Positions 33,413 through 48,600 of a stretch of 64,000 nt of DNA are shown piece by piece. The stretch covers positions 26,218-90,217 of IMG/VR virus record IMGVR_UViG_3300014202_001569; one strand, given 5' to 3'. The position numbers and the translations under genes were made by a program. Position 1 is the stretch's first letter. Every line of letters begins with the position of its first letter. The notes under the pieces were generated by a model that was not told the origin of the DNA, ran no database searches, and saw only the letters and a list, made by a program, of their open reading frames with translations. This DNA comes from a virus.

Positions 33413-33518
33413 CTGCGTTTCTCCGTTTGGGGTGTTTGGGCACTTAACTTGGTACAATTGCAATTAGGGGATGATACAAACGAAAAAAGGCAGGGTTTGC
33501 TGTCCCCTGCCTTACCCC

Positions 33519-33797: not shown

Positions 33798-34116
33798 CTG
33801 CGTTTCTCCGTTTGGGGTTGATTGGGCACCTTATCTGGTACAATTGCAATTAGGGGATGATACGAAAAAAGGGAAGAGAGGCGAACCTCTCTTCCCAATG
33901 GTGAGTTAGCGTCGTCGCCTTGACTGCCATTTTGTGTCGGGCTTAGACCGCCAGTTTACGTCGGGCTTAGACGGGCCACACTTCGCAGGCTCCCCAGCTA
34001 CGGGACGTTTGTAGTGCGGGGTAACGTCCCATCCGACCCCTTCACTACTAATCTTGGTACAATTGCAATTAGGCCATGATGCAAACAAAAAAAGGCAGGG
34101 TTTCCCTGCCTTAGCC

Positions 34117-34347
34117 TTACGCGGCCAGCGCCTTCAAGTCCAGCGTACAGGTGGGGCGCTTGGCGAAGCGGTCGGGAAACCGCCTGAACTCCCGCAAAGC
34201 CTGCACCTCATCCCACCTTCCAGGGATGGTACGCTCCGCGATCACCTCCTTGCCCATGCGGACGTAGATCGTGGTCAGCGTCTTTTTGACGCTGCCGTTG
34301 CGCTGGGTGAAGGTGGACACGCCGACGTTCAGCTTGCCGATCAACAT
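34117..34347 (-). CDS. Cassette ORF ending -ALAA
   Basis: Motif 34384 and SD. Confidence 0.7.
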   Translation of the reverse strand: MLIGKLNVGVSTFTQRNGSVKKTLTTIYVRMGKEVIAERTIPGRWDEVQALREFRRFPDRFAKRPTCTLDLKALAA

Positions 34348-34433
34348 GCGTCAGACTCCGTGGGGTTGTTGGGCACCTAATATGGTACAATTGCAATTTG
34401 AATCATATTGGGAGTGGGCGAACTCCCAATTGT

Positions 34434-34628
34434 TTAGTTCTGGCGATACTTGGCGATAGCTTCCGCCAGCGATGCCTCCATCGTCTTGCCAGCCTGCACG
34501 CCAGCCATCGTGTCATTCCGCAGCTTGCCGAGGTCCATGATGTTGAACTGAATGCAATTGCCCTGCGTGCGGAACGCATCATCGAAAGCCTTCTCCAGCG
34601 CCTTCTCAGCCTTGCTCATTCGTGCCAT
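34434..34628 (-). CDS. Cassette ORF
   Basis: Start MARMSKAE. Confidence 0.7.
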   Translation of the reverse strand: MARMSKAEKALEKAFDDAFRTQGNCIQFNIMDLGKLRNDTMAGVQAGKTMEASLAEAIAKYRQN

Positions 34629-34729
34629 TGTCTTTCTCCGTGTTGGGGTGTTTGGGCACTTAACTTGGTACAATTGCAATTAGGGGATGATAGAAAAAAA
34701 GGCAGGGTTGCTGTCCCCTGCCTCACCCC

Positions 34730-34972
34730 TTAGACCTTTGCCAGCAGCTTCGCCCACTTCTCATGCTGTTTCCAGTGGGCGCAGACGTGTTGTTTCTCCC
34801 GCAAAGCGGTGCGGATACGCTCACGAATCTCATGCGTCTTGTAAGCGTAGGTGCAAGTCGCCCACAAGTCCTCGGAGAAGGCAAGCAAGGTCAAAGCCTG
34901 CTCATACTCCTCATTGTTGACCAGAGCCAGGATAGCGTCTTTCTGGCGGATCAGAGCGTTGTCAAGTTCCAT
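34730..34972 (-). CDS. Cassette ORF
   Basis: Start MELDNAL. Confidence 0.7.
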   Translation of the reverse strand: MELDNALIRQKDAILALVNNEEYEQALTLLAFSEDLWATCTYAYKTHEIRERIRTALREKQHVCAHWKQHEKWAKLLAKV

Positions 34973-35061
34973 GTTCGACTCCGTTAGTTGGGCACCTAAC
35001 TTGGTACAATCGCAATTAGAGGATGAATGGGGCAAGGTTTGCTTTCCCTTGCCCTTCCCCT

Positions 35062-35415
35062 TTACTTTAGGTAGACAATACCATGTGCGGTCAGGCACTT
35101 GCCGAAGTCATCGGAGAACACGCTGCCCCGTGCGTGCTTTGCGGGGGCTTTGAAGCCAGCCGCCTTATGAATGTCGCCCGCCTTGAGAGCGCCAAGCGTT
35201 TTGGTGAAGCCGTCTTGCAGGCAGATGAAGCAATAGACGCTAGTTGGTTCCCGCTTGCCGTTGCGTTCCTCCAGCACCACGACACGCGCCCACTTGTCAC
35301 TGATGAAGTCAGCGCGATGGGTGGGAGGTGCGGAGTAAGTGTAGCCCATCTGCTTCCAGTGTTCCGCCGTCACTTCGTCGGCCCGCGTCACAAAGGCGTC
35401 GATGCGATCTTTCAT
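35062..35415 (-). CDS. Cassette ORF, conserved phage hypothetical protein
   Basis: Start MKDRIDAF; SVYCFI...GDIHKAAGFKAPAKHARGSVF. Confidence 0.75.
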   Translation of the reverse strand: MKDRIDAFVTRADEVTAEHWKQMGYTYSAPPTHRADFISDKWARVVVLEERNGKREPTSVYCFICLQDGFTKTLGALKAGDIHKAAGFKAPAKHARGSVFSDDFGKCLTAHGIVYLK

Positions 35416-35461
35416 GATTCTCTCCGTTGGGGTTTGGGCACCTAACTTGGTACAATTGGAA

Positions 35462-35638
35462 TTAGGCCACTTGGTATTCGTGTTCCCCAATAACAATCAT
35501 ACCACCGAAGAATTGCCACGTTGGGCTTGACGCCAGTGCCGCTGTATGCTCTTTCTCCAGAGCAGGCATATCGGCCTTGATTTGTTCCGCCGTCAAGTCC
35601 TCACGGGTGTCACGATGATACGCTGCGATGATCTTCAT
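35462..35638 (-). CDS. Cassette ORF ending -VA
   Basis: Start MKIIAAYH; stop codon fused to the motif. Confidence 0.65.
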   Translation of the reverse strand: MKIIAAYHRDTREDLTAEQIKADMPALEKEHTAALASSPTWQFFGGMIVIGEHEYQVA

Positions 35639-35715
35639 GGTCAACTCCAGGGTTTGGGCACCTTACATGGTACAATCGCAATTAGGGTATAAAGGGAGTG
35701 GGCGACTCCCTGCCC

Positions 35716-35967
35716 CTAATCCCCTTCGTAGTCTGGCCCATAGTGATTCTCGAAGTCCTCCATTTCCTGGCGTTCGAGGATAACGTCGTGCGCCAATTCC
35801 GCATCCCAACTATCCTCGAAGTTGTCCTCATCGTCATCATCGTCATCATCGAAGATGGAAGGGCCGTCGCCATCGGAACAGCAAGGGCAAGGCGGGTCGC
35901 AAACGTCGCAGCGATTGTTGCCGTTGCAATCCTGGTCCAGTTCGTTACCGCAACCACAGTAAGGCAT
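35716..35967 (-). CDS. Cassette ORF, Cys-rich N-terminus and hyper-acidic C-terminus
   Basis: CGC..C....C..C.PPCPCC followed by a DDDDDDDEDNFED tract. Confidence 0.7.
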   Translation of the reverse strand: MPYCGCGNELDQDCNGNNRCDVCDPPCPCCSDGDGPSIFDDDDDDDEDNFEDSWDAELAHDVILERQEMEDFENHYGPDYEGD

Positions 35968-36063
35968 GGCGTTCTCCAGTTTGGGGTTCGTTGCACCTAA
36001 TATGGTACAATTGCAATTAGGGGATGATAAGAAAAAAGGCAGGGTTTCCCCTGCCCTTCCCCT

Positions 36064-36324
36064 TTACGCGGCGGCTTTGGCGGCTTGTTTCGGTGTCTTC
36101 TTGGCATGGGATGCCAGGATGCCTCGCACCTCGACGGATTCGAGTAGGATGTGCCGCAACACGTTGTCGATGTTGCCGCGACGGACTAACTCCGAACCAA
36201 TCGAAGACGCCAGAAGCGCTTTCAGCTTCTCCAGTGCCTCGCATTCCGTTTCGTGGCGACGCGCTTCATCGCGGTTGGTGAATTGCTTGCCGTCAGCGGT
36301 CTGAAACAGAGAAACAACCTTCAT
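36064..36324 (-). CDS. Cassette ORF ending -KAAA
   Basis: FQTADGKQFTNRDEARRHE N-terminus. Confidence 0.75.
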   Translation of the reverse strand: MKVVSLFQTADGKQFTNRDEARRHETECEALEKLKALLASSIGSELVRRGNIDNVLRHILLESVEVRGILASHAKKTPKQAAKAAA

Positions 36325-36375
36325 GGCAAAACTCCAGGGGTTTAGTGTTACACACCTTTACTGGTACAATTGGAA

Positions 36376-36576
36376 TTAGACACCAGCTGCCAGTGACGCC
36401 ACATACTGGAAGCGATAGACAAACCATTTGTCGCGGCTGTCTTCGGGCCGCACGCGGATTACCTTGCGGTCATGGACGTAACTCGCGTGCAGAGCGGCAG
36501 AGCGGGAGCAACTGGCCTGATAGATACCCTTGTAGCACCAGTGCCGACCGTACTTGATTTCCACTTCAAACCGCAT
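36376..36576 (-). CDS. Cassette ORF
   Basis: Motif 36610; stop codon fused to the next motif. Confidence 0.7.
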   Translation of the reverse strand: MRFEVEIKYGRHWCYKGIYQASCSRSAALHASYVHDRKVIRVRPEDSRDKWFVYRFQYVASLAAGV

Positions 36577-36656
36577 GGTAGACTCCGTTAGGTGTTGGGC
36601 ACCTATTATGGTACAATTGCAATTAGGGTATTATTAGGGCATCCTTGCCCTGCCCC

Positions 36657-36920
36657 TTAGACCATTGCCTTGCCACGCTTGCCGTCGATGCAATCCTTTG
36701 CGGTGCGATACCATTCCGTGCCATCGGACCATGCACGCCATTTCTTGCCGTAGTTGTTCGGGTCGGGATGCCCTGACAGCATGAAGAAGCCAGGAACGCT
36801 CCAGAGGTAGACGGTATCGCCATTGGCCAATGCTGCTTCCAGGTCGGGAGCAAGGGCCGCATAGGGGCGCTTACCGCCAGGGGAAAGGTAGTCACGCAGC
36901 TTGAAGTCTACTTTCGCCAT
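36657..36920 (-). CDS. Cassette ORF
   Basis: Start MAKVDFKL. Confidence 0.7.
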   Translation of the reverse strand: MAKVDFKLRDYLSPGGKRPYAALAPDLEAALANGDTVYLWSVPGFFMLSGHPDPNNYGKKWRAWSDGTEWYRTAKDCIDGKRGKAMV

Positions 36921-37002
36921 GATTGACTCCAGTTTGGGTATCGTTGCACCTATTATGGTACAATCGCAATTAGGGTATAATGGAGTGGGCGACTCCATTG
37001 CC

Positions 37003-37299
37003 CTACGCTGCCTTTTGCTTGGCAAGAAGCCATTCGTAGGCTTGTGCCCAGGCATATTCGCGGTCGAAGCGGCCCCAACCGAAATCCCCGCAAGGATGTG
37101 CCTCAAAGTAATGCGGGCTTTTGTCGAGAGTAAACTTGATGCTGCATTCCGCCATGCCGTCGTTGAAGATGTGTTCTTGCCACTGATAGCCCGCTGCCAG
37201 GAACGCTTTCTGAATCTTTTCGATCATGACTGACTCCTTTGGGGTTGCGTTGCACCTAACATGGTAGCCCTTTGCGTCACACATCAGAAGCCATCGCAT
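37003..37299 (-). CDS. Fused cassette ORF ending -KAA (internal second start at 37227)
   Basis: MRWLLMCDAKG is in frame with MIEKIQKAF across a half-motif. Confidence 0.6.
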   Translation of the reverse strand: MRWLLMCDAKGYHVRCNATPKESVMIEKIQKAFLAAGYQWQEHIFNDGMAECSIKFTLDKSPHYFEAHPCGDFGWGRFDREYAWAQAYEWLLAKQKAA

Positions 37300-37387
37300 T
37301 GCTATTCTCCTTTGCGTTGCACCTATTATGGTACAATTGCAATTAGGGGATGATAGGAAAAAAGGCAGGGTTTCCCCTGCCTTCCCG

Positions 37388-37630
37388 TTAGGCGGCGATT
37401 TTCTCGGTAACGTCGAAGAGAAGCCATTCCTTGGCATTGGCTGGCGTGATGTAGAAGAAATCCCACAGACCATGCTTGACTGGCAACTGCCATTCCGTGG
37501 GACGAGTTTTCCACGTTTTCAGCTTGCCATTGACACGGCAGCGCTTGGCCGAACCATCCGAATTGCGGGCGGTCTTGTGGTAGATCGTCTTGCCCTTGTA
37601 GAAACCAGCGGCCAATTCCTTCGTAATCAT
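37388..37630 (-). CDS. Cassette ORF ending -KIAA
   Basis: Start MITKELAA; RVNGKLKTWKTRP motif. Confidence 0.75.
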   Translation of the reverse strand: MITKELAAGFYKGKTIYHKTARNSDGSAKRCRVNGKLKTWKTRPTEWQLPVKHGLWDFFYITPANAKEWLLFDVTEKIAA

Positions 37631-37751
37631 TCCATTCTCCAGTGGGGTTGTTGGGCACCTATTATGGTACAATTGCAATTGAGACGGGAGTGGCGTAGGT
37701 TTGCCTACCTTACGCTGACAGCACCACGCTGCCAGGCCACTCCCGCCTCGT

Positions 37752-37931
37752 TTACGCTACATACAACCCTGTTTCACCCTTGACCACGGTGACGCAATCC
37801 GCTTCCGTTTCGAGCAGGGACGCTTCATTGCTACTCACGATATAGCTGCGCCACTTGCCACCTTGCCCTTCGTTGTAGGGCTTCCACTTGTCCCACATCT
37901 CCTGCAACAGTTCATCGCGTTCGTCAGGCAT
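37752..37931 (-). CDS. Cassette ORF ending -VA
   Basis: Start MPDERDEL. Confidence 0.65.
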   Translation of the reverse strand: MPDERDELLQEMWDKWKPYNEGQGGKWRSYIVSSNEASLLETEADCVTVVKGETGLYVA

Positions 37932-38029
37932 TTCATTCTCTCCATTTGGGGTTTGGGCACCTAATATGGTACAATTGCAATTAGGGGATGATACGAAAAA
38001 AAGCGGGGTTGGCTGTCCCCCGCTCTCCC

Positions 38030-38209
38030 CTAGATATTGTTGCCCCTGCTCCCGCACCACTCATTCTGCGGCCCGTCATCATCGTCAATCATGGGGCAGG
38101 CAGCACTCCAGCGGGAGTATTCTTCCATTGCCTCATTGTATTCATCGTAGCAAACCTCATCACAGAACTCGCGTTCGCCGCAGGGCTTCTGGCAGAATCG
38201 ACAGGCCAT
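38030..38209 (-). CDS. Cassette ORF, Zn-binding and acidic
   Basis: MACRFCQKPC..EFCDEVC. Confidence 0.65.
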   Translation of the reverse strand: MACRFCQKPCGEREFCDEVCYDEYNEAMEEYSRWSAACPMIDDDDGPQNEWCGSRGNNI

Positions 38210-38259
38210 TGTTCTCTCCAGGTTAGGACTTCGTTGCACCTATATTGGTACAATTGGAA

Positions 38260-38538
38260 TTACAAGTCCTTTTTCCGTGGCACGTCGTTGATGGTGTAAG
38301 TGAACTTGATGCGCTTCCGCTCACAGTAACGCCAGAGTGCCTCCTGCTTGTTGCGGTTGGGCAGCTTGCCGTTCTTTTCAAGCCAATTGGCTGCGGAGTC
38401 CATCCAGGCGCTATCATACCCATAGGCATAGTCCACCTTATGGGCTAGTTCATCGTCAATCATGATGACGACGGAATGATAGGTCTGCCCTTTGCGCTTG
38501 TTGAACCAGCGGCAGCCGTGCAATTCGAGCGTTTTCAT
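38260..38538 (-). CDS. Hypothetical protein
   Basis: Start MKTLELHG; YAYGYDSAW motif. Confidence 0.7.
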   Translation of the reverse strand: MKTLELHGCRWFNKRKGQTYHSVVIMIDDELAHKVDYAYGYDSAWMDSAANWLEKNGKLPNRNKQEALWRYCERKRIKFTYTINDVPRKKDL

Positions 38539-38539
38539 G

Positions 38540-38734
38540 TTAGTTTCCTTTGCAATGCGGGCAAGCGATAGCACCGACGCCAGGGACAGCGGTTTTGCCA
38601 CGGTAAGAATTGGCACGCACCCGCGTTTCATTCTTGCAGGCACCGCACTTATAGACGAACACGGTTCGCCAAGGCGGTTGGAAATCGCGGACACGTTCGG
38701 AGCGTACTGGCGTTGACAGGTTCAGAGTGTTCAT
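38540..38734 (-). CDS. Zn-ribbon mini-protein
   Basis: CGAC...CPHC. Confidence 0.7.
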   Translation of the reverse strand: MNTLNLSTPVRSERVRDFQPPWRTVFVYKCGACKNETRVRANSYRGKTAVPGVGAIACPHCKGN

Positions 38735-38796
38735 TTGGTTTCTCCTTACCTATACTGGTACAATTGCAATTAGAGGACAATTGGGCGATTGCCTCC

Positions 38797-39057
38797 TTAC
38801 AGTAGAACCACCACGTTCATTCCGTCCAGTCGCCGCTCAACCCACTCTAGCACTTCGGCCCGATACAATTCGGTGACTTCGTGTTCTGCAAGCAACACCT
38901 CGCAATAGGCGTTGATGCTGTCATCGTGTTCCTTGATACGTTCGTCCTGCCCATCGGCGTCGAAATGGGCATCATACTTCAAGACGGCATCAGCGGCATT
39001 GTGGCCAGCGATGACACCTTGGACGCCATCACAGTTCTTGACGTGGAACACTGGCAT
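38797..39057 (-). CDS. Cassette ORF, acidic
   Basis: Start MPVFHVKN (or MTMPV at 39063). Confidence 0.65.
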   Translation of the reverse strand: MPVFHVKNCDGVQGVIAGHNAADAVLKYDAHFDADGQDERIKEHDDSINAYCEVLLAEHEVTELYRAEVLEWVERRLDGMNVVVLL

Positions 39058-39197
39058 TGTCATTCTCCGTTTGATTGGGCACCTAATATGGTACAATTGC
39101 AATTAGGTTTGGCCAAAAGAAAAACCCCACGGGATTGTTCCCGTGGGGTTTCGATCAGCCTTCCCCTCCTATATCGGTGTAGAGGTCATCCAGCCAC

Positions 39198-39374
39198 TTA
39201 TCCTGCTTTTCGTCGCTCGGCACCGTCGTCTTCGTTTGCGGGTCGCTCATTGGCGTTTCGTTCCTCGAATTGTCGGATTTGTTCTTTCTCGGCACGGGTC
39301 CAATCCTTTTCGCCACGGTGAACGGGTCGAATCTTGCCACCACTCTTGTCATACTGATTACGGTTCCAGCCCAT
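39198..39374 (-). CDS. Cassette ORF, charged
   Basis: Start MGWNRNQY. Confidence 0.55.
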   Translation of the reverse strand: MGWNRNQYDKSGGKIRPVHRGEKDWTRAEKEQIRQFEERNANERPANEDDGAERRKAG

Positions 39375-39423
39375 GATACTCTCCGTTGATTGATCGCCAC
39401 TCTCTGTTTGGTACAATTGGAAT

Positions 39424-39516
39424 TTACAGTGCCTTGATACAGAACCGAATCAGGCCGTAGGCAAAACTGCCCATCACCACGATGTAGAGCAGGACCAGAC
39501 CAAGTTGATTTTCCAT
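39424..39516 (-). CDS. 30-aa single-TM peptide
   Basis: MENQLGLVLLYIVVMGSFAYGLIRFCIKAL*; stop codon abuts the motif. Confidence 0.55.
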   Translation of the reverse strand: MENQLGLVLLYIVVMGSFAYGLIRFCIKAL

Positions 39517-39662
39517 TCTGCACCTTTTGGGTTTGAGTTCGTTGCACCTTATCTGGTACAATTGCAATTAGAGGATGATACGAAAAAAGGCAAGGGGTGA
39601 TGTCCCCTTGCCTCAAATTTTAGTTAATTGCCCTTTACGGGGGCGGTCTTGCGGCTTTATTG

Positions 39663-39947
39663 CTACGAATTGAGGTCGGCAATGGTGTAGAGCCATTCAG
39701 ACTTAGGAAGGCTGAGCGTCTTGGATTGAGCAATGCCAAGCTCGGTTGGCAAAATACTCCAGTAGTTCCCAGCGCTTCCTGTTTGGCGTATGAGGCCAGC
39801 ATCGGACAAGTGCAACAAAGTAAGCAAGCACTTACGAAAACAAACACGCCAACCAGAAACATGATCGCGGTGATTACATTCCTCCCATGTATGCACAAGG
39901 TCAAGTAGGATGCGACTCGCCAGACGGTTCTGAGCCAAGTTGAGCAT
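39663..39947 (-). CDS. Hypothetical protein (frame uncertain)
   Basis: Start MLNLAQNR downstream of motif 39990; an alternative overlapping frame exists. Confidence 0.4.
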   Translation of the reverse strand: MLNLAQNRLASRILLDLVHTWEECNHRDHVSGWRVCFRKCLLTLLHLSDAGLIRQTGSAGNYWSILPTELGIAQSKTLSLPKSEWLYTIADLNS

Positions 39948-39948
39948 G

Positions 39949-40188
39949 TTAGCCCTTTTTGCGTTTCTTCTTCTTGCCACACTCATCTTGGTACAATTGC
40001 AATTCCTGCTCGCTCACCTCGTCGTCCGTCCATTCAGGCACCACCACGGGCGGCACGGGCTTCAAACTGGCGGAACAGTGGACGCCATTAGGCCGCAAAC
40101 CCCCGCCCTGATGATCGACAAAGCTCTTGTCTGGAGTGTAAGACACCAAACTCCTACACTCCAGACAGTAGGCCACGCTATAGACCAT
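39949..40188 (-). CDS. Zn-finger-like ORF with the motif inside its 3' end
   Basis: CLEC...HC; ELQLYQ is the translated motif. Confidence 0.6.
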   Translation of the reverse strand: MVYSVAYCLECRSLVSYTPDKSFVDHQGGGLRPNGVHCSASLKPVPPVVVPEWTDDEVSEQELQLYQDECGKKKKRKKG

Positions 40189-40423
40189 CCTTCAACTCCT
40201 CTTTGAAGTCATCCCAATAGTCGTCGGGCAAGTCATTCTCTTCGGGCGGATACAACTGAGCCATGATGAAAGCCGTGTACGCCGCCGTTCCAGGCTGAGG
40301 CCCATTCGGACCAAAATCCGTCTTGATGCCCTGGCAACACACGCAGTCCTTATGACAGGACACAGCACGATCTTCACACGTCTCATGATCGTTATGATCG
40401 GGATGTTCGCATTTCATGTTCAT
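40178..40423 (-). CDS. Leaderless Cys/His-rich acidic ORF
   Basis: ATG exactly 9 nt after GTACC. Confidence 0.7.
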   Translation of the reverse strand: MNMKCEHPDHNDHETCEDRAVSCHKDCVCCQGIKTDFGPNGPQPGTAAYTAFIMAQLYPPEENDLPDDYWDDFKEELKDGL

Positions 40424-40446
40424 GCCCTTTTTGGTACAATTGGAAT

Positions 40447-40647
40447 TTAGGCCGCTTTCCCGATGACAACCTTTGCCATACCCATCAACGTGCGGGCAAT
40501 GGCATCCTGTCTGTCAATCGCCTGCACCTTGTAGAGCGTAATCAAGGTAGGCGACAACGCATCCTGCACTAACTTGCGGAACACTCGCACCTTGTAGCCC
40601 TGGCTTGGATAGCACGGATGATACACTTCGACGTAGAACTCTTTCAT
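40447..40647 (-). CDS. Cassette ORF ending -GKAA
   Basis: Motif 40670 and AAGGAG. Confidence 0.7.
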   Translation of the reverse strand: MKEFYVEVYHPCYPSQGYKVRVFRKLVQDALSPTLITLYKVQAIDRQDAIARTLMGMAKVVIGKAA

Positions 40648-40682
40648 GTTTGTTCTCCTTACCTAAACTGGTACAATTGGAA

Positions 40683-40871
40683 TTAGAAGGGGATTTCTTC
40701 TTCCACTTTGTTCCACGTTGCCCGATAGGTAGCGACTCTGGCGACTTCATCGCTCCGAACCCATTCGCCCTTGAGTTGCGGGGGCTTGCAGCACAGTATC
40801 AACCGATGAAAGTTCCCTTCCTTCTGATGCGCCACCACGTCATCCCCGAACTCATCAATCGTTTCGTGCAT
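40683..40871 (-). CDS. Cassette ORF
   Basis: Start MHETIDEF. Confidence 0.65.
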   Translation of the reverse strand: MHETIDEFGDDVVAHQKEGNFHRLILCCKPPQLKGEWVRSDEVARVATYRATWNKVEEEIPF

Positions 40872-40951
40872 GTTTGTTTTCTCCTTACCCAAACTGGTAC
40901 AATCGCAATTAGCCCTAAACGAAAAAGGGCGGGATTGCTCCCGCCCCACCC

Positions 40952-42061
40952 CTACTTCTTATTGAATAAACCCTTCAAGATGGAATCTTCCGCCTTCAAC
41001 CATACCTCCTTGAGCGGAACCTTATGCTTGCGGGCATTGAACAACACGCCAGTAAACACCGTCTCACCCTCAATCAAGATGGCAAAATCCTTCTGGTTCT
41101 CTTCATCCTTGACGCAGTGCCACAACGATTCCAATTCATTGTAAGCACCATCTACCTTGCCCTTGTAATGCTTGAAACAATCCGTAATTTCAGGATACGT
41201 CGCAAGCAATTCGTCGCCTTCACCCTCCAAGATGAACGGCAACAGAGTCGAAGGATTGTAAAGCGCGTCACCATTCGCACCCTTCATCTTATGCAGCGAT
41301 AGATAACGCTTGTTCTTGATCTTCCAACGACGGTTCGCGTCATCCTTCACAACGCAACCTTCCCACGTCGCTTCTGGCTGCGAATTGACGTAATCCGTTA
41401 CGTCGTCAGCACTTCGGAGCGAATACTGGCCAACCGTCTTGAACAGTGGGACATTTTGCGGGCCAACTTCTTCTTCGCCACAGAATGCGGAAAGCTGGTA
41501 GACGCACGGCTGAGCATACTCCCGAACCACCTTGTTCCAAAGGGAGCAAAACTCGCAAGCGTAACTCAACGAAGGATCAAGGTACAATTGTAATTCTTGC
41601 AAGTCCTTGATGCCCAGCGCCTGTAAGATACCTTCCTTCCAGGTGAAGGAAGCTGGCATCTTATGGTAGTTCGCCTGCCATTCGGTGTTGAACATGCCCA
41701 TGTTCGCGTAGGAACCACGGGTATTCACACGCCATTCGCCATCGAAGTGATAGAACAGCAGCAAGCTGCCGTCTACCTTCTCCAGCGCAACAGACTTATC
41801 CCAATTGAACAGCGGCATTTCGTCCGCTACTTCACCCCAATTGAAAAATCGGGGGAAGGCACGCGCCACCAGCGAATGGTCCTCAGTGTTGAGAACTAAG
41901 CCACGGCATTCGCGGACAATGGGATCAGTCTTCGGAGAGTCGATTTGGCTATAGTTCAGGATAGCCAGGGGAAGCGTATCATGGCGATTGACGGAGATAT
42001 GTAGTTCCGTTTCCAGGTCCGTCAGAGTCTTGCCAGAACGCAGATAGTCGATAGTCTTCAT
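40952..42061 (-). CDS. rnl1: RNA ligase, T4 Rnl1 family
   Basis: RECRGLVL, RAFPRFFNWGE, EKVDGS (adenylation Lys), EGCVV, KIKNKRY. Confidence 0.9.
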   Translation of the reverse strand: MKTIDYLRSGKTLTDLETELHISVNRHDTLPLAILNYSQIDSPKTDPIVRECRGLVLNTEDHSLVARAFPRFFNWGEVADEMPLFNWDKSVALEKVDGSLLLFYHFDGEWRVNTRGSYANMGMFNTEWQANYHKMPASFTWKEGILQALGIKDLQELQLYLDPSLSYACEFCSLWNKVVREYAQPCVYQLSAFCGEEEVGPQNVPLFKTVGQYSLRSADDVTDYVNSQPEATWEGCVVKDDANRRWKIKNKRYLSLHKMKGANGDALYNPSTLLPFILEGEGDELLATYPEITDCFKHYKGKVDGAYNELESLWHCVKDEENQKDFAILIEGETVFTGVLFNARKHKVPLKEVWLKAEDSILKGLFNKK

Positions 42062-42120
42062 TTTCTTTCTCCTCTAATCTAATTGGTACAATCGCAATTA
42101 GAGGAGAAAGGGACGGCCCC

Positions 42121-42510
42121 TTATTGGGGGCCATCTTCCTGCTTTCTCCTCTTTTTGGGTGTTGCCAGTGGCATCATGGGAGGCATTCCGCCTTGCTGTT
42201 GCTTGGCACCGTCCTGCTGCGCCTTGACGAACTCTTCCGTAACACGCATCAGGTTCAGGTATCGACAGTCCAGGGTCAGAACAGGTTCACTCGGATCAGA
42301 CAAAAGTTTGCCCACAAAGTAGGGCAGGCAAATTGCCTGAATGTGCAAGCTCTGGCCCATGATCGGCGCACCGTCTTCCGTCTTTTTCAGGTTGTAGACG
42401 CAGACGTACTGGCCAACCTCAAGATCGTCTTCCGCCAGCATCACCCCCACGCGCTTGCGAGGCGTTTCTTCCATCGCGTCGTCATAGTCTTCTTGTTCTT
42501 GTCCAATCAT
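42121..42510 (-). CDS. Hypothetical protein
   Basis: Motif 42547 and GGAG SD. Confidence 0.65.
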   Translation of the reverse strand: MIGQEQEDYDDAMEETPRKRVGVMLAEDDLEVGQYVCVYNLKKTEDGAPIMGQSLHIQAICLPYFVGKLLSDPSEPVLTLDCRYLNLMRVTEEFVKAQQDGAKQQQGGMPPMMPLATPKKRRKQEDGPQ

Positions 42511-42559
42511 CGCTTTCTCCAGTTAAGGTTAGTTACACCCTAGATTGGTACAATTGCAA

Positions 42560-42805
42560 TTAAATCGCCATCCGTTCTGACAACCAGTTAGGAATGGAGT
42601 CCGCTGAACCGTTGTATACATACTGCCCATTACTAGACCACTTGAAAAAGTGAAAGTTGTCGTTCTGGACATTATAAACGGCAATGCGGTCTAAGTCAAC
42701 CACGTTAAAGTAGCGGACGCCATAGAACTTACAAATCCCTTCGACCGTTCTTAAAGCGTCCACCAGCTTGATTACTTCTCCCAAGGGGCTTTCGACGCTA
42801 GACAC
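42560..42805 (-). CDS. Hypothetical protein
   Basis: ORF track; stop codon fused to the motif. Confidence 0.55.
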   Translation of the reverse strand: MSSVESPLGEVIKLVDALRTVEGICKFYGVRYFNVVDLDRIAVYNVQNDNFHFFKWSSNGQYVYNGSADSIPNWLSERMAI

Positions 42806-43212
42806 CGCTCAACCGTTAAAGGTTCACAGCGGTTTCGCATCGCCTCCACCTTGTCCTGCGGCACCCCATGCACGTTCTGAAACGAACCGTGACAAGGGAA
42901 GAAGAACACTGGCACCCCAAGCTCTTGCGCCATCTCGACATACGGCTTGGCTTCCCATGCCTGCGTATTCGTATTGTCGATAATGACCGTCTGACCGAAC
43001 TCCAAGGCTTGCCGTGCCATCTTCTGATTGATAGCGTGATACACGCCAACCTTCGACGGGTCGAATTTATAAACGCCGTCCACCTCAAATTGCTTATCGG
43101 TGGAACAGACCTTCACATCATGACCCAGCGCCACCAGCATAGCCCGAATCGTCTCAGCTACGGTGGACTTGCCCGAACCACTCGGACCCTGCATGATTGC
43201 GAGAATGTTCAT
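42772..43212 (-). CDS. AAA_33/N4BP2-like polynucleotide kinase
   Basis: MQGPSGSGKST P-loop, VIIDNTN, NVHGVP. Confidence 0.85.
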   Translation of the reverse strand: MNILAIMQGPSGSGKSTVAETIRAMLVALGHDVKVCSTDKQFEVDGVYKFDPSKVGVYHAINQKMARQALEFGQTVIIDNTNTQAWEAKPYVEMAQELGVPVFFFPCHGSFQNVHGVPQDKVEAMRNRCEPLTVERCLASKAPWEK

Positions 43213-43428
43213 GTTTGCTCCTTTTGATTGCCCATTATATCTGGTACAATCGCAATTAGCAAGAGAGGGGAAAAGGGCGGGTTTGCTGTCCCCGCCCGCA
43301 TCATCAAAGCTGTCTAATTAAGTGTCGGCACTTGATTTCGGGCGCTAGAGGCCAACCCCCTAGCGCCCAGCTATCAGCCGCAGAATAGGTATGTTCCTTG
43401 CATTTAATATCATTTAAGGTTTCCTTTG

Positions 43429-43632
43429 TTACGCCGCTGCTCGACGTTGCCCGATGTGATCGTTCAGGGCAGAAATGGAGCAGCTATGCCAGAACTTCTC
43501 AATCAATAGCGGACGCCAGCCCTTCCCATACCAGATTTGCGCAATCGCCAGCGCCGTCTCACGCTCTTTCGCCGTAAACTCCTGATAGAGTTCACCTTCC
43601 ACTGGATGCGTACCCTTCAAGCCATACAGCAT
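43429..43632 (-). CDS. Hypothetical protein ending -RAAA
   Basis: Start corrected to MLYGLKG after GGAGG; the longer track start overlaps the tRNA. Confidence 0.65.
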   Translation of the reverse strand: MLYGLKGTHPVEGELYQEFTAKERETALAIAQIWYGKGWRPLLIEKFWHSCSISALNDHIGQRRAAA

Positions 43633-43661
43633 TGCAAGCCTCCGAATAGAGAAAAGGTCAG

Positions 43662-43736
43662 TACCGCTAGGGGGATTTGAACCCCGCATTTTCTGGTTGA
43701 AAGCCAGGTGTCCTATCCAGATTAGACGATAGCGGC
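43662..43736 (-). tRNA. trnE: tRNA-Glu(UUC), CCA not encoded
   Basis: GCCGCTA acceptor; CTGG-CTTTCAA-CCAG anticodon arm; GGGG-TTCAAAT-CCCC T-arm; 3' A then CTG. Confidence 0.92.
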
Positions 43737-43743
43737 ATAACAG

Positions 43744-43830
43744 TGAGCCGAGTAGGAGTTGAACCTACAATGCGCTAGCTAGGCGCGCCTGGGTTACAGC
43801 CAGGTGGACTTGCCAATGTCCAATCGACTC
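43744..43830 (-). tRNA. trnY: tRNA-Tyr(GUA), long variable arm, CCA not encoded
   Basis: GAGTCGA/TCGGCTC acceptor; CCTGG-CTGTAAC-CCAGG; GTAGG-TTCAACT-CCTAC. Confidence 0.92.
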
Positions 43831-43863
43831 ATTTGGGCGACACCTAGTTTGGTACAATTGCAA

Positions 43864-44082
43864 TTACGCTTCCTTGTAGTAATCGTCTTGCGGCTGCCGC
43901 ATATCGAAGGGAAAGTATTCCCGTCCCGCCAGCGGCATATCCTCACTGTTAATCGGGTCGCCGTCTTCCGTTTCCCACTCAACGCCACCATGATCGTGAA
44001 TCTTGAACTCTTGCTTGATACATTCCCCCGCGTCATTGAACGTCTGTTCCACAACGCCAGGGGAAAACTTCTTGAACAGCAT
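43864..44082 (-). CDS. Acidic hypothetical protein
   Basis: Stop codon fused to the motif. Confidence 0.65.
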   Translation of the reverse strand: MLFKKFSPGVVEQTFNDAGECIKQEFKIHDHGGVEWETEDGDPINSEDMPLAGREYFPFDMRQPQDDYYKEA

Positions 44083-44092
44083 GTTAGCTCCT

Positions 44093-44263
44093 TTATTTGC
44101 GAAGACGCTCTTTATGGTACAATTGCAATTTCTCTTCCATCTTCGCCACCAATTCCGCTGGTGCCTTCACCCATTTCAGCCAGTTGATTGTGTTCTGCCC
44201 ATCATTGAACCAATCGAAGCGTTCGATCAGTTCAGGATGGGTCAGAACAGCACGCACAATCAT
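44093..44263 (-). CDS. 56-aa ORF containing the motif (KLQLYH)
   Basis: Manual translation MIVRAVLTHPEL...KERLRK*. Confidence 0.55.
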   Translation of the reverse strand: MIVRAVLTHPELIERFDWFNDGQNTINWLKWVKAPAELVAKMEEKLQLYHKERLRK

Positions 44264-44264
44264 G

Positions 44265-44522
44265 TTACGCCGCCTTCTTTGTCTGCTGCTCCATCACAGT
44301 TAGCTCCAGATAGATCGGGAGCAGGTAGACGTTCGTGGGCTTGCCCTTCTGCCCTTCCACCTTGCGGGGCTTGCCCATCTGACAGTGGCCCAGCTTCACC
44401 AGCGTTTTCAGGAAACCCTGCGCATCCATGTAGTCCAAACCGTTCGCATCAGCCAGTTCCTTGATGCTCACCTCATGCACGCAGTCATAAGGCTCATTCA
44501 CTTTCAGCTTCTTCGGAATCAT
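44265..44522 (-). CDS. Winged-helix-like protein ending -KKAA
   Basis: VSIKELADANGLDYMDAQGFLKTLVKLG...GKPTNVY. Confidence 0.6.
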   Translation of the reverse strand: MIPKKLKVNEPYDCVHEVSIKELADANGLDYMDAQGFLKTLVKLGHCQMGKPRKVEGQKGKPTNVYLLPIYLELTVMEQQTKKAA

Positions 44523-44630
44523 CGTTTCCCCTTGTTTGAAGTTCGTTGCACCTTAACTGGTACAATCGCAATTAGAGGATGAAAAAACAAAGAAAGGGGA
44601 AGGGATTTTACTCCCCTCCCCCCTTAGACG

Positions 44631-45005
44631 TTACGCGGCGGGCCGACCACGCTTGAACGTGATGCCCTCGGCTTCCGCAACCTGTCGGCACAAGGTCAGT
44701 GACACCTTGAGCTTGCGTTCCTTGCGGAGAAACTCGCGGCCCTTCGTGTAACCGAACCGCTTCAGCGCCGCTGCCACGATTCGACGGTCAGTGCCGTTGT
44801 AGACGCGGGGCCGACCTGGACCACGTTCACCCTTTGCCTTCACCTTGACGGGCTTGACCTGCTTGCGGGGGCCACGTTCCACCCCCTTATCGACACGCGG
44901 CATACGGTAGACATAAAAGCCCTCCGTAGTCAGCTTGCCACGGCACTGCGGGCCGACTTCATCCCGCACAACCCGCCCACCAAAGTTCAGTTCGTTCGCA
45001 GCCAT
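44631..45005 (-). CDS. Basic putative DNA-binding protein ending -PAA
   Basis: RGPGRPR and KRGRP AT-hook-like motifs. Confidence 0.6.
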   Translation of the reverse strand: MAANELNFGGRVVRDEVGPQCRGKLTTEGFYVYRMPRVDKGVERGPRKQVKPVKVKAKGERGPGRPRVYNGTDRRIVAAALKRFGYTKGREFLRKERKLKVSLTLCRQVAEAEGITFKRGRPAA

Positions 45006-45071
45006 GAGAAACCTCCAGAGAAAAGAGAAAGTTTGTTACTCGCACTTAGTTTGGTACAATTGCAATTGGAA

Positions 45072-45548
45072 TTAGAACCTTACCTTGTTCCAAGTCCAGA
45101 CGAACGGATACGCAACCGCCGTCTTGATTCGTTGCCACGCAGCCGCCTTCATCTCAGCGATGATTTCGGCCACCATCCCCCGCACCACTTCCTTGTTCAC
45201 CAGCGCCGCACAATGTTCCTTCACTTGCGCCAGCACCGCTTCCTTGATGTCATCATACTTGCTCTCAATGCAAGTCTCGATTTCATCCTTTGCCTTCACC
45301 TCGATTTCATCCCACCAGTCGTAATCCCGCACCGCATCATGGATTGCGTCGGAGAAGTCGTGGTCATTCATCGCCTTCTCAACCGCATCGTCCACGTCGA
45401 TTTCGTCGCGGATAGCACTCTTCACCTCGTCGGAGAAGTCGTGATTCTCCAGAGCCGACTCCACCTCATCCTTGAAGTCACGCTCACCAAGATACGCCTC
45501 GATGCCTTCATTGATGATCGTTTCCAACTGCTCGCCAAGTCCGCTCAT
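45072..45548 (-). CDS. Acidic helical-repeat protein
   Basis: HDFSD repeated; very D/E-rich. Confidence 0.7.
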   Translation of the reverse strand: MSGLGEQLETIINEGIEAYLGERDFKDEVESALENHDFSDEVKSAIRDEIDVDDAVEKAMNDHDFSDAIHDAVRDYDWWDEIEVKAKDEIETCIESKYDDIKEAVLAQVKEHCAALVNKEVVRGMVAEIIAEMKAAAWQRIKTAVAYPFVWTWNKVRF

Positions 45549-45600
45549 GTGTTCCCCTTGCGTTTGAGTTCGTCACACAATCATTCTGGTACAATTGCAA

Positions 45601-45801
45601 TTAGGTGGGATTCCCGTTTTCATCCACGTCGTTCCCGTCAGCATCTTCGATACTGAACACGTCGAATGTATCTTCGACGTACTTCACTTCGTCATCTTCG
45701 GGAATGTTCATGTTCGCAATCAGGTCCGCAAGGTCTTCGGGCTTACAACGTATCGTTGTCTTGAGCCGCACTTCGACCTCGACCGTGTATTCTTTCTCCA
45801 T
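45601..45801 (-). CDS. Acidic mini-protein
   Basis: Stop codon fused to the motif. Confidence 0.7.
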   Translation of the reverse strand: MEKEYTVEVEVRLKTTIRCKPEDLADLIANMNIPEDDEVKYVEDTFDVFSIEDADGNDVDENGNPT

Positions 45802-45914
45802 TTGCTCCCTTTCATTTTGAAACTCGTTGCACCCTTACTGGTACAATCGCAATTAGGCACTGTACAAAAAAATAGGGCAGCCACCATTGGCTGCCCTACA
45901 CACAAGGGATTGAT

Positions 45915-46649
45915 TTACGCGGCTGCCTTGTCCGTCCCGAACAGCAAGTCCTTTGCGTAACCATACAGACGGTTCAAGACGCCTAGCGGACTATCACTCA
46001 CCCCTACCTTGAGGTGCGATAGGAAGTGAACGGGACGCAACACCTTGATACAAGCCAAGATGCCTTCCTTCGAGGGAACATACATCGCCAACCGCTCGAA
46101 GAATCCATCCTTAATCTCATACTTTTCCACTGGTGCCAGCATCAAGCGCCGTTCGTCATCGCTGAAATTGTCCATCAGCAACTTCATCAAGCGGCCCGCA
46201 AGCTCTTGCTCAATCGGCGCACCCTGGATAAGCTCAGAAAACGGACGAATCGTGGTCTTATCTTCACACGCAACCTCATTCGTCACCAGCTTATCCGCCA
46301 TATCCGCCGTCAAACCCGCCTTGACCAGCGCCGATACCAACTTCTCTTTCGCCCCGCCCTGGCATTCAGGATCAGCCTGCGGATAGAACTTGGCCTGCAC
46401 TTGGAACAAGCCCTCAATATCCGCCTTGCCGTCCCGCGTCACAATGAGACGGGGATTCGTCGGCTTGCAACGTAGCTTGGACAAACTCTCAGCGAATGAG
46501 TCAATCAGACTCTCTTTCAGGATACCCTCTTCCGCCTTCATACGGGCCTCAGCCTTTTCGTAGATTTGCTTCGCATAAGCAAACCGCTCAAAGGACGGCA
46601 GCAACGCGGCGGATACAGGAACCTGCGGACGATCTTGCTTCTTAGCCAT
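45915..46649 (-). CDS. Hypothetical protein ending -KAAA
   Basis: Start corrected to MAKKQDR; the longer track start overlaps the tmRNA-like RNA. Confidence 0.75.
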   Translation of the reverse strand: MAKKQDRPQVPVSAALLPSFERFAYAKQIYEKAEARMKAEEGILKESLIDSFAESLSKLRCKPTNPRLIVTRDGKADIEGLFQVQAKFYPQADPECQGGAKEKLVSALVKAGLTADMADKLVTNEVACEDKTTIRPFSELIQGAPIEQELAGRLMKLLMDNFSDDERRLMLAPVEKYEIKDGFFERLAMYVPSKEGILACIKVLRPVHFLSHLKVGVSDSPLGVLNRLYGYAKDLLFGTDKAAA

Positions 46650-46711
46650 CGGTCGTTCTCCCCTTTTGGTGAAAGTGTCGGAACACCTAGTTTGGTACAA
46701 TTGCAATTCAG

Positions 46712-46847
46712 TGGACCAGTCGGGAATTGAACCCGATTCCAGTCGATTTGCTGACAAACTACGCTACTTGTGTTGAGGCATCTTTTCGCGTCTGACCTAC
46801 CACGGTCAAGCCTGTCACTTGGATCGCTGTCGAAACCTGTCTGGCCC
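46712..46847 (-). ncRNA. ssrA: Minimal tmRNA-like RNA (136 nt)
   Basis: GGGCCAG/CTGGTCC-A acceptor with G3.U pair; ACAGGTTTCGAC D-loop; P2 helices AGCGAT/ATCG(A)CT and TGACAGGCT/AGTTTGTCA; GGAA connector; TCGGG-TTCAATT-CCCGA T-arm. Confidence 0.8.
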
Positions 46848-46861
46848 GATTGTGTAAGTTA

Positions 46862-46994
46862 GCCCCTAGCGGTTATCGTCGCCGCACCTACCTGCAAAGC
46901 CTAGCGTACCATTGGCCACTGGCACGTCCTACATGGCATGTATACCCACCATTAAGAGTCGGCTCCAGGTCGCACTACATTATGCGATAGGGGC
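46862..46994 (-). ncRNA. Unknown structured RNA (133 nt), tRNA-like closing stem
   Basis: GCCCCTA/TAGGGGC terminal stem; internal stems TCGCA/TGCGA, CCTG-GAGCC/GGCTT-TG-CAGG, TACAT/ATGTA, CGTGCCA/TGGTACG and GCGG/CCGC; 5' end 9 nt after GTACC. Confidence 0.65.
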
Positions 46995-47070
46995 AACTTA
47001 ACTGGTACAATCGCAATTACATCATGCCCTAAAAAAGGGGAAGGGCTTTCGCCCCTCCCCCTCGGCCCCC

Positions 47071-48087
47071 TTAGACCGCAAGCCCGCTGGCCATTTCCAC
47101 CGCTGCGGACAGCGCCAGCTTGTTCATGGTGTTGTTCTGGCCAAACCAGAGCGAATTGAGTCGGTTGTCCTCATTCCGCCCGTTGACGTAGCTGAGATAC
47201 TCAGTCACGCCATTGTAGGCACTCCAGTACGTTCCCCGAACGCTAGGCAGGTTGTTCCCCTTGCCCGCTTCACAAAGCTCAATCACCTCTTCCAGAATGT
47301 TCTTCTGGCGTTCGGAAACCACTTCCTTCAACTCCTTGGAACGCTCCCCCGCCGTCCAGATGGCGCTATCCTCCGCGTCCACCTTGAACACCCGCTTGAC
47401 ATACTTGCGGAGGTCATTCTGGTTAATGCTCTTATTAACCAGCAAGCGATACTGCTCAGCAGTCGCCTCGAACTCCGCATTCATCAAGTTCATAACGTCC
47501 CGAAGATTTTCGAGATTCGTATGAATGTTCTTGCTATGCTTCAAGCGAATCAGCTTGGAAGCATCAGCGGAATGCGCCATCGAAAGCGTATTCCAGCAGA
47601 CCACGCGAATCGGCGTGAACCCGCAACGAACCGCCAAGCTACCGTCGTGGCTATGGCTGAGAAGAATGTACTTCTCAACCACATCCCCCGCCGCAATCTC
47701 CATCGGATCACGGTTCAGCTTAGCCAGCGCCCAAATGCGGCTGCCTTCAAACAGCGCCCCACCAGTATGCAGGGCCGCTTCCTTCTGGTCCAACCACGGT
47801 TGAAACCAGCCGAACGCCTCTTGATTCTGGAGAATCGTGTAGCGCTCACCCACCATGTTCGCCAACACCTTGCCATCAGTGGAACGAACCACTTCCCACG
47901 CATCAGCAGGCACCCACGCATCATTCACCTTGCGGGCCAACTGACGCTTCTCCGCGTCCCAATTCAGGCCAGCTTTCTCGATGAACAACTTGTGGTCATA
48001 CATCGCCGCCTCTTCCGTGACCGCCGTACCCAAACCATGCCACGGCGTTGCACCCACGAAAGCCATCGACTCAACTGCTGCAACCAT
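47071..48087 (-). CDS. DUF932 (TIGR03299-like) phage/plasmid protein
   Basis: VESMAF...PWHGLG, GALFEGSRIW, LLSHSHDGS, FTPIRVVCWNTL, GTYWSAYNGVTEY. Confidence 0.85.
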   Translation of the reverse strand: MVAAVESMAFVGATPWHGLGTAVTEEAAMYDHKLFIEKAGLNWDAEKRQLARKVNDAWVPADAWEVVRSTDGKVLANMVGERYTILQNQEAFGWFQPWLDQKEAALHTGGALFEGSRIWALAKLNRDPMEIAAGDVVEKYILLSHSHDGSLAVRCGFTPIRVVCWNTLSMAHSADASKLIRLKHSKNIHTNLENLRDVMNLMNAEFEATAEQYRLLVNKSINQNDLRKYVKRVFKVDAEDSAIWTAGERSKELKEVVSERQKNILEEVIELCEAGKGNNLPSVRGTYWSAYNGVTEYLSYVNGRNEDNRLNSLWFGQNNTMNKLALSAAVEMASGLAV

Positions 48088-48210
48088 GTTTCTCTCCCTT
48101 AAAGTAAAGTTTTCGGTTCCCTTGTGCCTTAACTGGTACAATTGCAATTTGGCCAAATCCAACTTCCCTTATCTTACCCCAAAAAACACCAATGTAAAAA
48201 GGAAGTCAGA

Positions 48211-48600
48211 TTACGCCGCCGCCTTCAAATTGTCTGGTGTACATGTTTCCAGGTCCACCACCGCAGCCAACGGATTGTCCACCCTCGGCTTTAACCACGC
48301 CAAGAACTGTTCCCTTGTATAGCTTCCTTCCTTCACCATCTTGCAATCCTCAACCTTGATCGGCGTCTTGTCCCACCACGGACGCTCTGGCTTCTTACGT
48401 TCCTTTACCGAATAAATGTTGCCAGCCTTCCTTTTGACCAAAGTAACGCGGAAATAATCCGTGAAAACGAAAGCCCCATAAATGTGCATCTTCCGCACAT
48501 CTATCGCCATCGTCTTCGGATTACCCGTCTTCGTAAATTCCCCCGTCTCTATGAAATAACGCTGGCATTCCGCCATCCACCGACTATTGTGCTGCTTCAT
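48211..48600 (-). CDS. Hypothetical protein ending -KAAA
   Basis: Start corrected to MKQHNSRW. Confidence 0.7.
   Translation of the reverse strand: MKQHNSRWMAECQRYFIETGEFTKTGNPKTMAIDVRKMHIYGAFVFTDYFRVTLVKRKAGNIYSVKERKKPERPWWDKTPIKVEDCKMVKEGSYTREQFLAWLKPRVDNPLAAVVDLETCTPDNLKAAA

Follow-up and report, generated by a model that had tools for sequence, protein, structure and literature searches.

Transfer-messenger RNA (tmRNA) in its bacterial one-piece form (ssrA, Rfam family RF00023) has a tRNA-like domain (TLD), a helix P2 with a GUAG-type 3' entry, a GGA connector, an A-rich leader followed by a GCN codon at the resume position, and the pseudoknots PK1-PK4 and helix 5, in a total of about 360 nt. 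Several smaller or unusual forms have been described. The tmRNAs of jakobid and oomycete mitochondria and of Mallomonadaceae plastids, the plastid ones being of about 65 bp, have no coding sequence (RF02544; PMC11915505), and are presumed to act with SmpB without tagging (PMC11915505). Fermentibacterota have tmRNAs with two-amino-acid Ala-Ala tags (PMC11915505). A 'TLD only' tmRNA, again without a coding sequence, has been described in Mycobacterium phage DS6A (Hudson, Lau & Williams 2014, PMC4131195; PMC11915505). Here we describe a 64,000-nucleotide stretch of viral DNA (the window, bases 245,656-309,655 of a 340,934-bp IMG/VR virus record, G000), which carries on its minus strand, at 46712..46847, a gene for a 136-nt mini-tmRNA with G1 at 46847 and the discriminator A at 46712. 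The literature search found no description of a 136-nt family of this type, and DS6A was the sole reduced phage tmRNA found. It is near certain that the gene and its structure are real, phage-encoded and under selection. The family to which it belongs is an intermediate between the TLD-only forms and full tmRNA, with a long P2 and a resume-like motif, and no pseudoknots.

The Rfam tmRNA model RF00023 matches the locus with 48.1 bits against a gathering score of 47, over model positions 1-374 and with an E-value, taken over the window as a whole, of 6e-16. Where models of one clan overlapped, only the best match was kept, here RF00023. In this alignment 37 nt of the mini-tmRNA take the place of 269 model positions. 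The family's own covariance model, R1, gives it 154 bits. ARAGORN run on the window calls no tmRNA at this locus and reports only a tRNA-Glu and a tRNA-Tyr, and blastn of the locus against 50,697 phage records gave no match. The initial annotation, made from the sequence letters, had named both ARAGORN and the Rfam search as checks; the Rfam search supports it, and ARAGORN does not. Identity as a tRNA-Ala was considered and rejected, as ARAGORN calls no tRNA here, the fold has neither D-stem nor anticodon arm, and the best Rfam family is tmRNA, not tRNA. With the RF00023 score and E-value, the unconstrained fold and the compensatory changes in homologues described below, the mini-tmRNA is far above chance.

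The fold of minimum free energy (MFE), calculated without constraints, has -44.8 kcal/mol (z -2.5) and the layout of a tmRNA TLD plus P2. In order there are a 7-bp acceptor stem, an open D-loop, P2a, an internal loop, P2b, a three-way junction with two hairpins (Ha and Hb), and the T-arm, all on the minus strand. The 5' strand of the acceptor stem, GGGCCAG (46841..46847), forms 7 bp with CUGGUCC, the G of its G3:U pair being at 46845. It is followed by a stemless, unpaired D-loop, ACAGGUUUCGA (46830..46840, RNA positions 8-18), which aligns with the RF00023 consensus GGaUUCGAC. C19 (46829), the last base of this GG.UUCGAC-type tmRNA motif, opens P2, and the D-loop stretch together with this C reads ACAGGUUUCGAC. 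The 5' strand of P2 (46809..46829) comprises P2a of 7 bp, an internal loop CCAAG and P2b of 9 bp, and the 3' strand (46740..46760) comprises P2b, an internal loop GCAA, and P2a with one bulged A. The interior of P2 is about 48 nt, folded as two simple hairpins. Ha, UGACC-GUGGUA-GGUCA (46793..46808), occupies the place of pseudoknot 1 in full tmRNA, and the MFE fold extends its stem by the pair U40:A55. Hb (46761..46791) has an ACGC/GCGU stem closing a 23-nt loop, which holds an A-rich stretch followed by GCC, GAAAAGAUGCC, at 46777-46787. The GGA connector, the T-arm UCGGG-UUCAAUU-CCCGA and the acceptor 3' strand CUGGUCC (46713..46739) are supported by the RF00023 alignment, the MFE fold and covariation. 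Beyond the discriminator the sequence is CUG, and the CCA end is thus incompletely encoded.

None of the pseudoknots PK1-PK4 was found in the RF00023 alignment, the MFE fold or the family consensus. A pseudoknot between the loops of Ha and Hb was also considered and discarded, inspection finding no complementary segment between the two. The initial annotation had proposed a complete TLD with almost no mRNA-like domain, consisting of a G3.U pair, a stemless D-loop with UUCGAC, a long P2, the GGA connector and a T-arm, with about 48 nt inside P2 that include a TGACC/GGTCA hairpin. The RF00023 match and the fold bear out this reading, and each of these parts is where it had been placed.

Homologues were collected by pattern searches. 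The first pattern had the tmRNA end motifs only, followed by a test for a 7-bp acceptor stem, and was applied to IMG/VR contigs; it gave 37 candidates of 79-162 nt, 36 of them with a perfect 7-bp stem and G3:U. One candidate (L096) was removed as a tandem-tRNA artefact. A second pattern, which was the first with the Ha loop added, gave further members in metagenome contigs and metagenome-assembled genomes (MAGs). In all, 17 homologues of 118-138 nt were collected from viral, metagenome and MAG contigs. The length is 133-138 nt in 16 of these 17, down to 51% identity, and 118 nt in L120. The copies in three other records, G001, G002 and G003, score 49.8, 50.4 and 60.1 bits respectively with RF00023. 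The sequences UUCGAC, the T-loop and the Ha loop GUGGUA are fixed by the search patterns, and their invariance is not independent evidence.

In a MAFFT alignment of 10 members, the consensus structure is the same as the single-sequence fold. Paired cells make up 96.8% of the total, as against 28-43% when the partners are slid by 1-3 columns, and changes on both sides are seen in 26 of 35 pairs, as against 5-9 in those controls. In 500 column shuffles, no observed measure was reached. P2 has compensatory changes in 13 of its 15 pairs in the 10-sequence alignment, and three of the four modelled pairs of the Ha stem (GACC/GGUC) covary in it; in the alignment fitted to R1, all four do. This second alignment, of 18 rows, has compensatory changes in 29 of 35 pairs, and leans towards the structure because it was fitted to the model. 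All 18 rows have G3:U, while acceptor positions 4-7 vary freely and covary. G3:U together with A73 is invariant both in the 18 rows and in all 36 TLD-bearing viral minis. One test set beforehand for the initial annotation was whether homologues are conserved and carry compensatory changes, and they do.

The close relatives are L065, from G001, a 373-kb record that is 98% complete, and L036, from a 159-kb record. The mini-tmRNA is 95% identical to the first and 80% identical to the second, and the flanks, which cannot be aligned, have 26-41% identity. For the DUF932 and 244-aa proteins encoded next to the mini-tmRNA, identity to the relatives' copies is 66-77% (tblastx), and a structural protein encoded in the window is 44-64% identical in the records of L065 and L036. 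Since identity is higher for the RNA than for the proteins, and higher for the proteins than for the flanks, the mini-tmRNA is, by these sequence comparisons, the best-conserved feature of its neighbourhood within one jumbo-phage lineage, with a wider family beyond. Contigs with a G001-like copy of the mini-tmRNA are also found in three metatranscriptome libraries from one sediment study, and their similarity to the window is confined to 46710-46847. As alignments, they confirm that conservation is confined to the predicted RNA. Because these contigs run into different flanks, and DNA carry-over is possible, they indicate presence, not transcription.

The RNA of DS6A was placed at JN698994:28478-28560. 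Its length is about 80 nt, and its 43.2 bits fall short of the RF00023 gathering score. Like the mini-tmRNA it is phage-encoded, has a G3:U acceptor, a stemless D-loop ending in CGAC, P2, a T-arm and no pseudoknots, escapes ARAGORN-style annotation, and carries an A-rich stretch in the loop closing its P2. However, its P2 is of 5 bp closed by about 21 nt, whereas that of the mini-tmRNA is of 16 bp in two parts, leading to the conserved three-way junction of Ha and Hb. Unlike DS6A, the mini-tmRNA has a conserved A-rich and GCC motif and a score above the gathering threshold, and is found in jumbo phages, here with a full-length phage tmRNA in the same genome. As a type, DS6A is marked by a short P2, a small loop and a total of about 63-90 nt. 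DS6A-like copies are 79-83 nt, and a 79-nt class found in viral contigs belongs to this type. The mini-tmRNA is likewise a phage-encoded TLD of alanine identity without an anticodon arm, but with 136 nt, a 16-bp P2 and a conserved 48-nt two-hairpin domain it falls outside these sizes. Further reduced tmRNAs among the viral contigs (L014/L042/L053, L056/L069, L113/L118 and others) form distinct families of 114-162 nt with internal domains of their own, and differ from both the DS6A-type 79-nt class and the 136-nt family.

Compared with bacterial tmRNA, the mini-tmRNA has the TLD, P2, the GGA connector, the GUAG-type 3' entry into P2 and an A-rich leader followed by a GCN codon at the resume position, but lacks PK1-PK4, helix 5 and a conserved tag frame. 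It shares with the organellar forms a TLD and the lack of an evident tag frame; by their description these are set apart in having no internal two-hairpin domain. The Fermentibacterota tmRNAs have a very short frame after the resume codon, as do the family members L036 and L259, but by description they differ from other tmRNAs only in the length of the tag, whereas the mini-tmRNA has no pseudoknots. Two studies of huge phages annotated tmRNAs with ARAGORN (PMC7162821, PMC12484599). Of the 19 loci scanned here, ARAGORN called a tmRNA only at L131, and with a tag that is spurious. Reduced phage tmRNAs are under-annotated, a restricted pattern search having given 36 of 79-162 nt in viral contigs.

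The first part of the Hb loop holds a motif R-A-A-A-N-A-Y-GCC, which is conserved across the family, and is also present in L120/L048, which is without Ha and was found without an Ha constraint. The motif resembles the A-rich leader and alanine resume codon of E. coli tmRNA. The initial annotation had proposed a tag frame starting here, GCC UCA ACA CAA GUA GCG UAG (ASTQVA*, 46759..46779 on the minus strand), with A at -4 and its stop codon extending into the 3' strand of P2. The frame, the A at -4 and the overlap with P2 are correct; the proposed tag is weakened because its frame is not conserved among the members. In the frame of the conserved GCN there is a stop in 9 of 17 members, giving peptides of 1-7 residues, and none in the other 8. 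The peptides are ASTQVA* in this copy, ASIQVA* in L065, AYIKVAC* in L197, ASIKVAC* in L246, ASIK* in L131, ALVKT* in L120, and A* (GCC UAA) in both L036 and L259. L138 has ACC in the GCN column and no peptide in that frame, the next frame giving an 11-residue peptide and a stop. In L208, L184, L179, L133, L324, L156, L198 and L159 the GCN frame is free of stops up to the 3' end, and L133 has no stop in any frame. The length of the Hb loop differs by single nucleotides among members, which shifts the frame. Given the different peptides, the absence of stops in 8 of 17 members and the frame shifts, a tag peptide is not, as far as the aligned sequences tell, a conserved property of the family. 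Almost all members of the closest sub-clade do have a stop somewhere, at positions that vary; this would fit a rule that any short frame will do, but the pattern is not statistically secure. The tag called by ARAGORN in L131 (AKRCLNQVAC*) was treated as spurious because its frame is open-ended in the present copy. Mimicry of an anti-Shine-Dalgarno sequence by GCCUC was also considered and set aside, GCCUC not being conserved.

G000 is a jumbo phage and not a bacterial contig. Its left end carries a phage DNA polymerase and genes that match PHROG families only, and among phage genes including this polymerase, outside the window, lies a full-length tmRNA (G000:C1:8558-8914, minus strand, 120 bits) with the tag ATPYEYALAA. 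On these surroundings, the reading that the full-length tmRNA belongs to a host flank of a 'provirus' was rejected. Its TLD sequence differs from that of the mini-tmRNA, which is therefore not a recent deletion derivative. The presence of both RNAs in one phage suggests a division of labour, with different jobs for the two. G001 has the mini-tmRNA and no full-length tmRNA. It is worth adding that G001 holds two sub-threshold tmRNA-like RNAs, at 24,758-24,884 (29 bits) and 82,583-82,660 (22 bits), both with G3:U acceptor stems and T-arms. The search for a homologue of the G000 DNA polymerase in G001 and G002 found none and, the query being long, is uninformative.

No SmpB was found in G000, in G001 (98% complete) or in G002, and G000 has no Pth and no AlaRS above the cut-off. 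The window encodes two PolyA_pol-head nucleotidyltransferases of the CCA-adding type, at 17433-19022 (plus strand) and 62956-63717 (minus strand). A T4 Rnl1-like RNA ligase (also phrog_562; 40952-42061, minus strand), an AAA_33/PNK-like kinase (42772-43212, minus strand) and a pair of genes for tRNA-Glu(UUC) and tRNA-Tyr(GUA) (43661-43830, minus strand) form a module of tRNA-repair type, 3-6 kb downstream of the mini-tmRNA in the direction of transcription. The upstream neighbour of the mini-tmRNA is a DUF932 protein (phrog_1221; 47071-48162, minus strand), which is retained in three related contigs (L065 about 620-1530; L246 2633-3640) with 66-73% identity. A protein-pattern search for its relatives in viral contigs gave none, and the synteny came from tblastx on the loci that the RNA had led to. 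No family match was obtained for the downstream 244-aa protein, its look-alikes being only 'hypothetical viral protein'. Elsewhere in the genome there is a 201-aa RF1-like protein (G000:C1:79,470-80,075; L253:1429-2034, minus strand). It is without domain 1, aligns with RF1 over positions 132-336 and retains a PxT-like and a GGQ motif; in size it is close to PrfH.

The minus strand of the 341-kb record has 70 copies of a 15-nt motif, AATTGCRATTGTACC, and the plus strand has one (G000 90,604). All but one of the minus-strand copies (69 of 70) lie within 274-336 kb of G000 (274,616-336,041; window 28961-63681), the remaining one being directly upstream of the big tRNA cluster, at G000 109,736. 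The motif precedes small genes, the tRNA-Tyr/tRNA-Glu pair and the mini-tmRNA unit. No copy lies in the structural region or ahead of the full-length tmRNA. The motif is probably a phage-specific promoter. One copy, AATTGCGATTGTACC (47004..47018, minus strand), lies 157 nt upstream of the mini-tmRNA, just past the terminator of the DUF932 gene, and heads a putative unit composed of a structured RNA and the mini-tmRNA. The next copy, AATTGCAATTGTACC (46694..46708, minus strand), begins 4 nt past the discriminator and would drive the downstream 244-aa gene. The candidate structured RNA (46862..46994, minus strand) has a multi-stem fold closed by a 13-bp stem (z -2.25), no Rfam match, and only patchy conservation in L065 and L036. 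No terminator was found between it and the mini-tmRNA, and the two are probably co-transcribed.

The discriminator A and the CUG that follows it are identical for tRNA-Glu (43661), tRNA-Tyr (43743) and the mini-tmRNA (46712), so that all three need completion of CCA. In several family members the gene lies within or beside tRNA genes. The common promoter motif, the identical A-CUG trailer, the CCA-type enzymes and the homologues near tRNAs are indirect evidence that the mini-tmRNA is made and processed like the phage tRNAs.

We suggest, with moderate confidence, that the mini-tmRNA acts as an alanyl-accepting tmRNA mimic, which would work with the host's SmpB on stalled ribosomes, either competing with tagging tmRNA or rescuing the ribosomes with no tag or a short one. 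It would be transcribed from the phage-specific promoter along with the upstream structured RNA, trimmed like the phage tRNAs, and completed at its CCA end by a CCA-adding enzyme, for which the phage has two candidates. Host AlaRS would charge it with alanine through G3:U and A73, and it would bind the EF-Tu and SmpB of the host, on whose SmpB it must rely, the phage having none of its own. It would then enter ribosomes stalled on broken mRNAs and take over the nascent chain, adding no degradation tag, or at most a few residues, because it has neither a pseudoknot ring nor a conserved tag frame. Overall, in the infected cell, SmpB and stalled ribosomes would be drawn away from tagging for degradation. 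According to the passage of PMC3895274 that cites Shimizu and Ueda, a TLD alone accepts a nascent peptide in vitro. Further precedents for this proposal are the TLD-only RNA of DS6A and the reported inhibition of tmRNA by a lone TLD in E. coli (PMC4131195, PMC11915505). Charging probably matters to the function, as judged from the alignments: G3:U and A73 are strictly kept while positions 4-7 vary, which would imply action on the ribosome and not simple sequestration of SmpB. Several points weigh against this proposal. The full-length tagging tmRNA (...YALAA) in the same phage fits poorly with a simple block of trans-translation; the conserved A-rich and GCC motif, and the in-frame stops in all but one of the eight nearest relatives, may allow a real if short tagging; the invariance of UUCGAC and the T-loop in the collected set is imposed by the search patterns; and the metatranscriptome evidence consists of contigs from one study, which speak for the presence of a relative and not for transcription, ends or strand.

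The initial annotation had offered a decoy, a tag-less rescue RNA and an ultra-minimal tagging tmRNA, which cannot be separated by sequence. The last of these would be a complete tmRNA: translation would resume on the Hb-loop GCC, run for 1-7 codons (ASTQVA in this copy) and end at UAG, so that the released protein would carry a short non-canonical tail. We regard this reading as unlikely. The A-rich stretch and GCC, with A at -4, are conserved in the family, and the spacing of 13 nt from Ha to GCC is presumably like that from PK1 to the resume codon in E. coli tmRNA. An in-frame stop is found within 8 codons in 8 of the 9 closest members, though the peptides differ, and a variant in the RNA-library contigs makes codon 4 UAA. 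The phage also encodes the RF1-like factor with PxT and GGQ motifs, and bacterial tmRNAs with two-amino-acid tags have been reported (PMC11915505). On the other hand, the GCN frame is without a stop in 8 of 17 members, with L133 lacking one in every frame, and single-nucleotide variation in loop length shifts the frame. The stop overlaps helix P2, and only about 36 nt of free chain is available to span the decoding centre and the mRNA channel and to return to P2. We know of no tmRNA that works without a pseudoknot ring or a replacement spacer, and count this against minimal tagging also. It is only tentatively that the family can be proposed as a natural minimal trans-translation RNA, with a hairpin for PK1, a loop of about 23 nt as the message, resumption on GCC, and release after 1-7 codons. 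If this were true, the pseudoknot ring of tmRNA would be dispensable, and jumbo phages would have, in addition to a classical tagging tmRNA encoded by the same genome, a means of ribosome recycling that leaves proteins unmarked for degradation.

A quite improbable reading is that the RNA never enters the ribosome, and stops host trans-translation as a sponge that keeps host SmpB, and perhaps AlaRS or EF-Tu, away from the ribosome by titration. As PMC4131195 and PMC11915505 relate the work of Mao et al. 2009, endogenous tmRNA in E. coli is strongly inhibited by a TLD-only molecule whether or not it can be charged, perhaps through SmpB titration; this suits a sponge, as do the lack of a phage SmpB and the position of the gene behind a promoter-type motif repeated about 70 times. 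However, SmpB binding alone does not need the conserved G3:U, A73 and internal A-rich/GCC motif, and a sponge would also starve the phage's own full-length tmRNA, whose presence makes the decoy of the initial annotation less simple. Some other tRNA-like role, as a decoy for a nuclease or defence sensor, a substrate or guide in RNA repair, or a partner of the upstream RNA, is less probable still. The Rnl1-like ligase and PNK-like kinase lie 3.5-6 kb away with phage tRNAs close by, and the structured RNA at 46862-46994 is probably co-transcribed, but the ligase and kinase are not adjacent to the mini-tmRNA in relatives, no specific feature points to such a role, and every conserved element is a tmRNA element. 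That the locus is a decaying leftover, either a tmRNA pseudogene with an internal deletion or a piece of ssrA kept as an integration site, is very improbable indeed, and was rejected on the covariation and the contrast with the flanks. It is true that tmRNA genes are frequent integration sites and fragments of them common (PMC11915505), and that IMG/VR flags the G000 record as provirus. But both halves of the mini-tmRNA are present and pair perfectly, size is kept in all but one of the homologues, every helix has compensatory changes, and the flanks diverge while the RNA does not. Moreover the TLD is unlike that of the phage's full tmRNA, and the gene is flanked by promoter motifs, not by an integrase.

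Whichever of these roles applies, the mini-tmRNA bears on the ways in which phages, while taking over a cell, interfere with the ribosome rescue and protein quality control of the host, and it is a natural scaffold on which to ask what minimal RNA is needed for ribosome entry, frame setting and release.

The window also shows a change in base composition. The G+C content is 50-57% over 20 kb (window about 29,000-48,500; G000 274.5-294 kb), as against about 41% for the genome, and 45-47% to the right of this stretch. In position the stretch matches the dense part of the promoter-motif array, and in the relatives the homologous loci too have about 50-53% G+C. A chimeric assembly behind this jump is unlikely, as the promoter motif is also found at 109,736, in the low-G+C part, and both G001 and G002 carry the structural protein together with the mini-tmRNA. 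Elsewhere in the record, ARAGORN reports 18 tRNAs at G000:C1 74,672-109,686, all of the long-arm types (Leu, Ser, Tyr), and a further tRNA-like sequence, which it does not call, lies at G000:C1 106,947-107,037.

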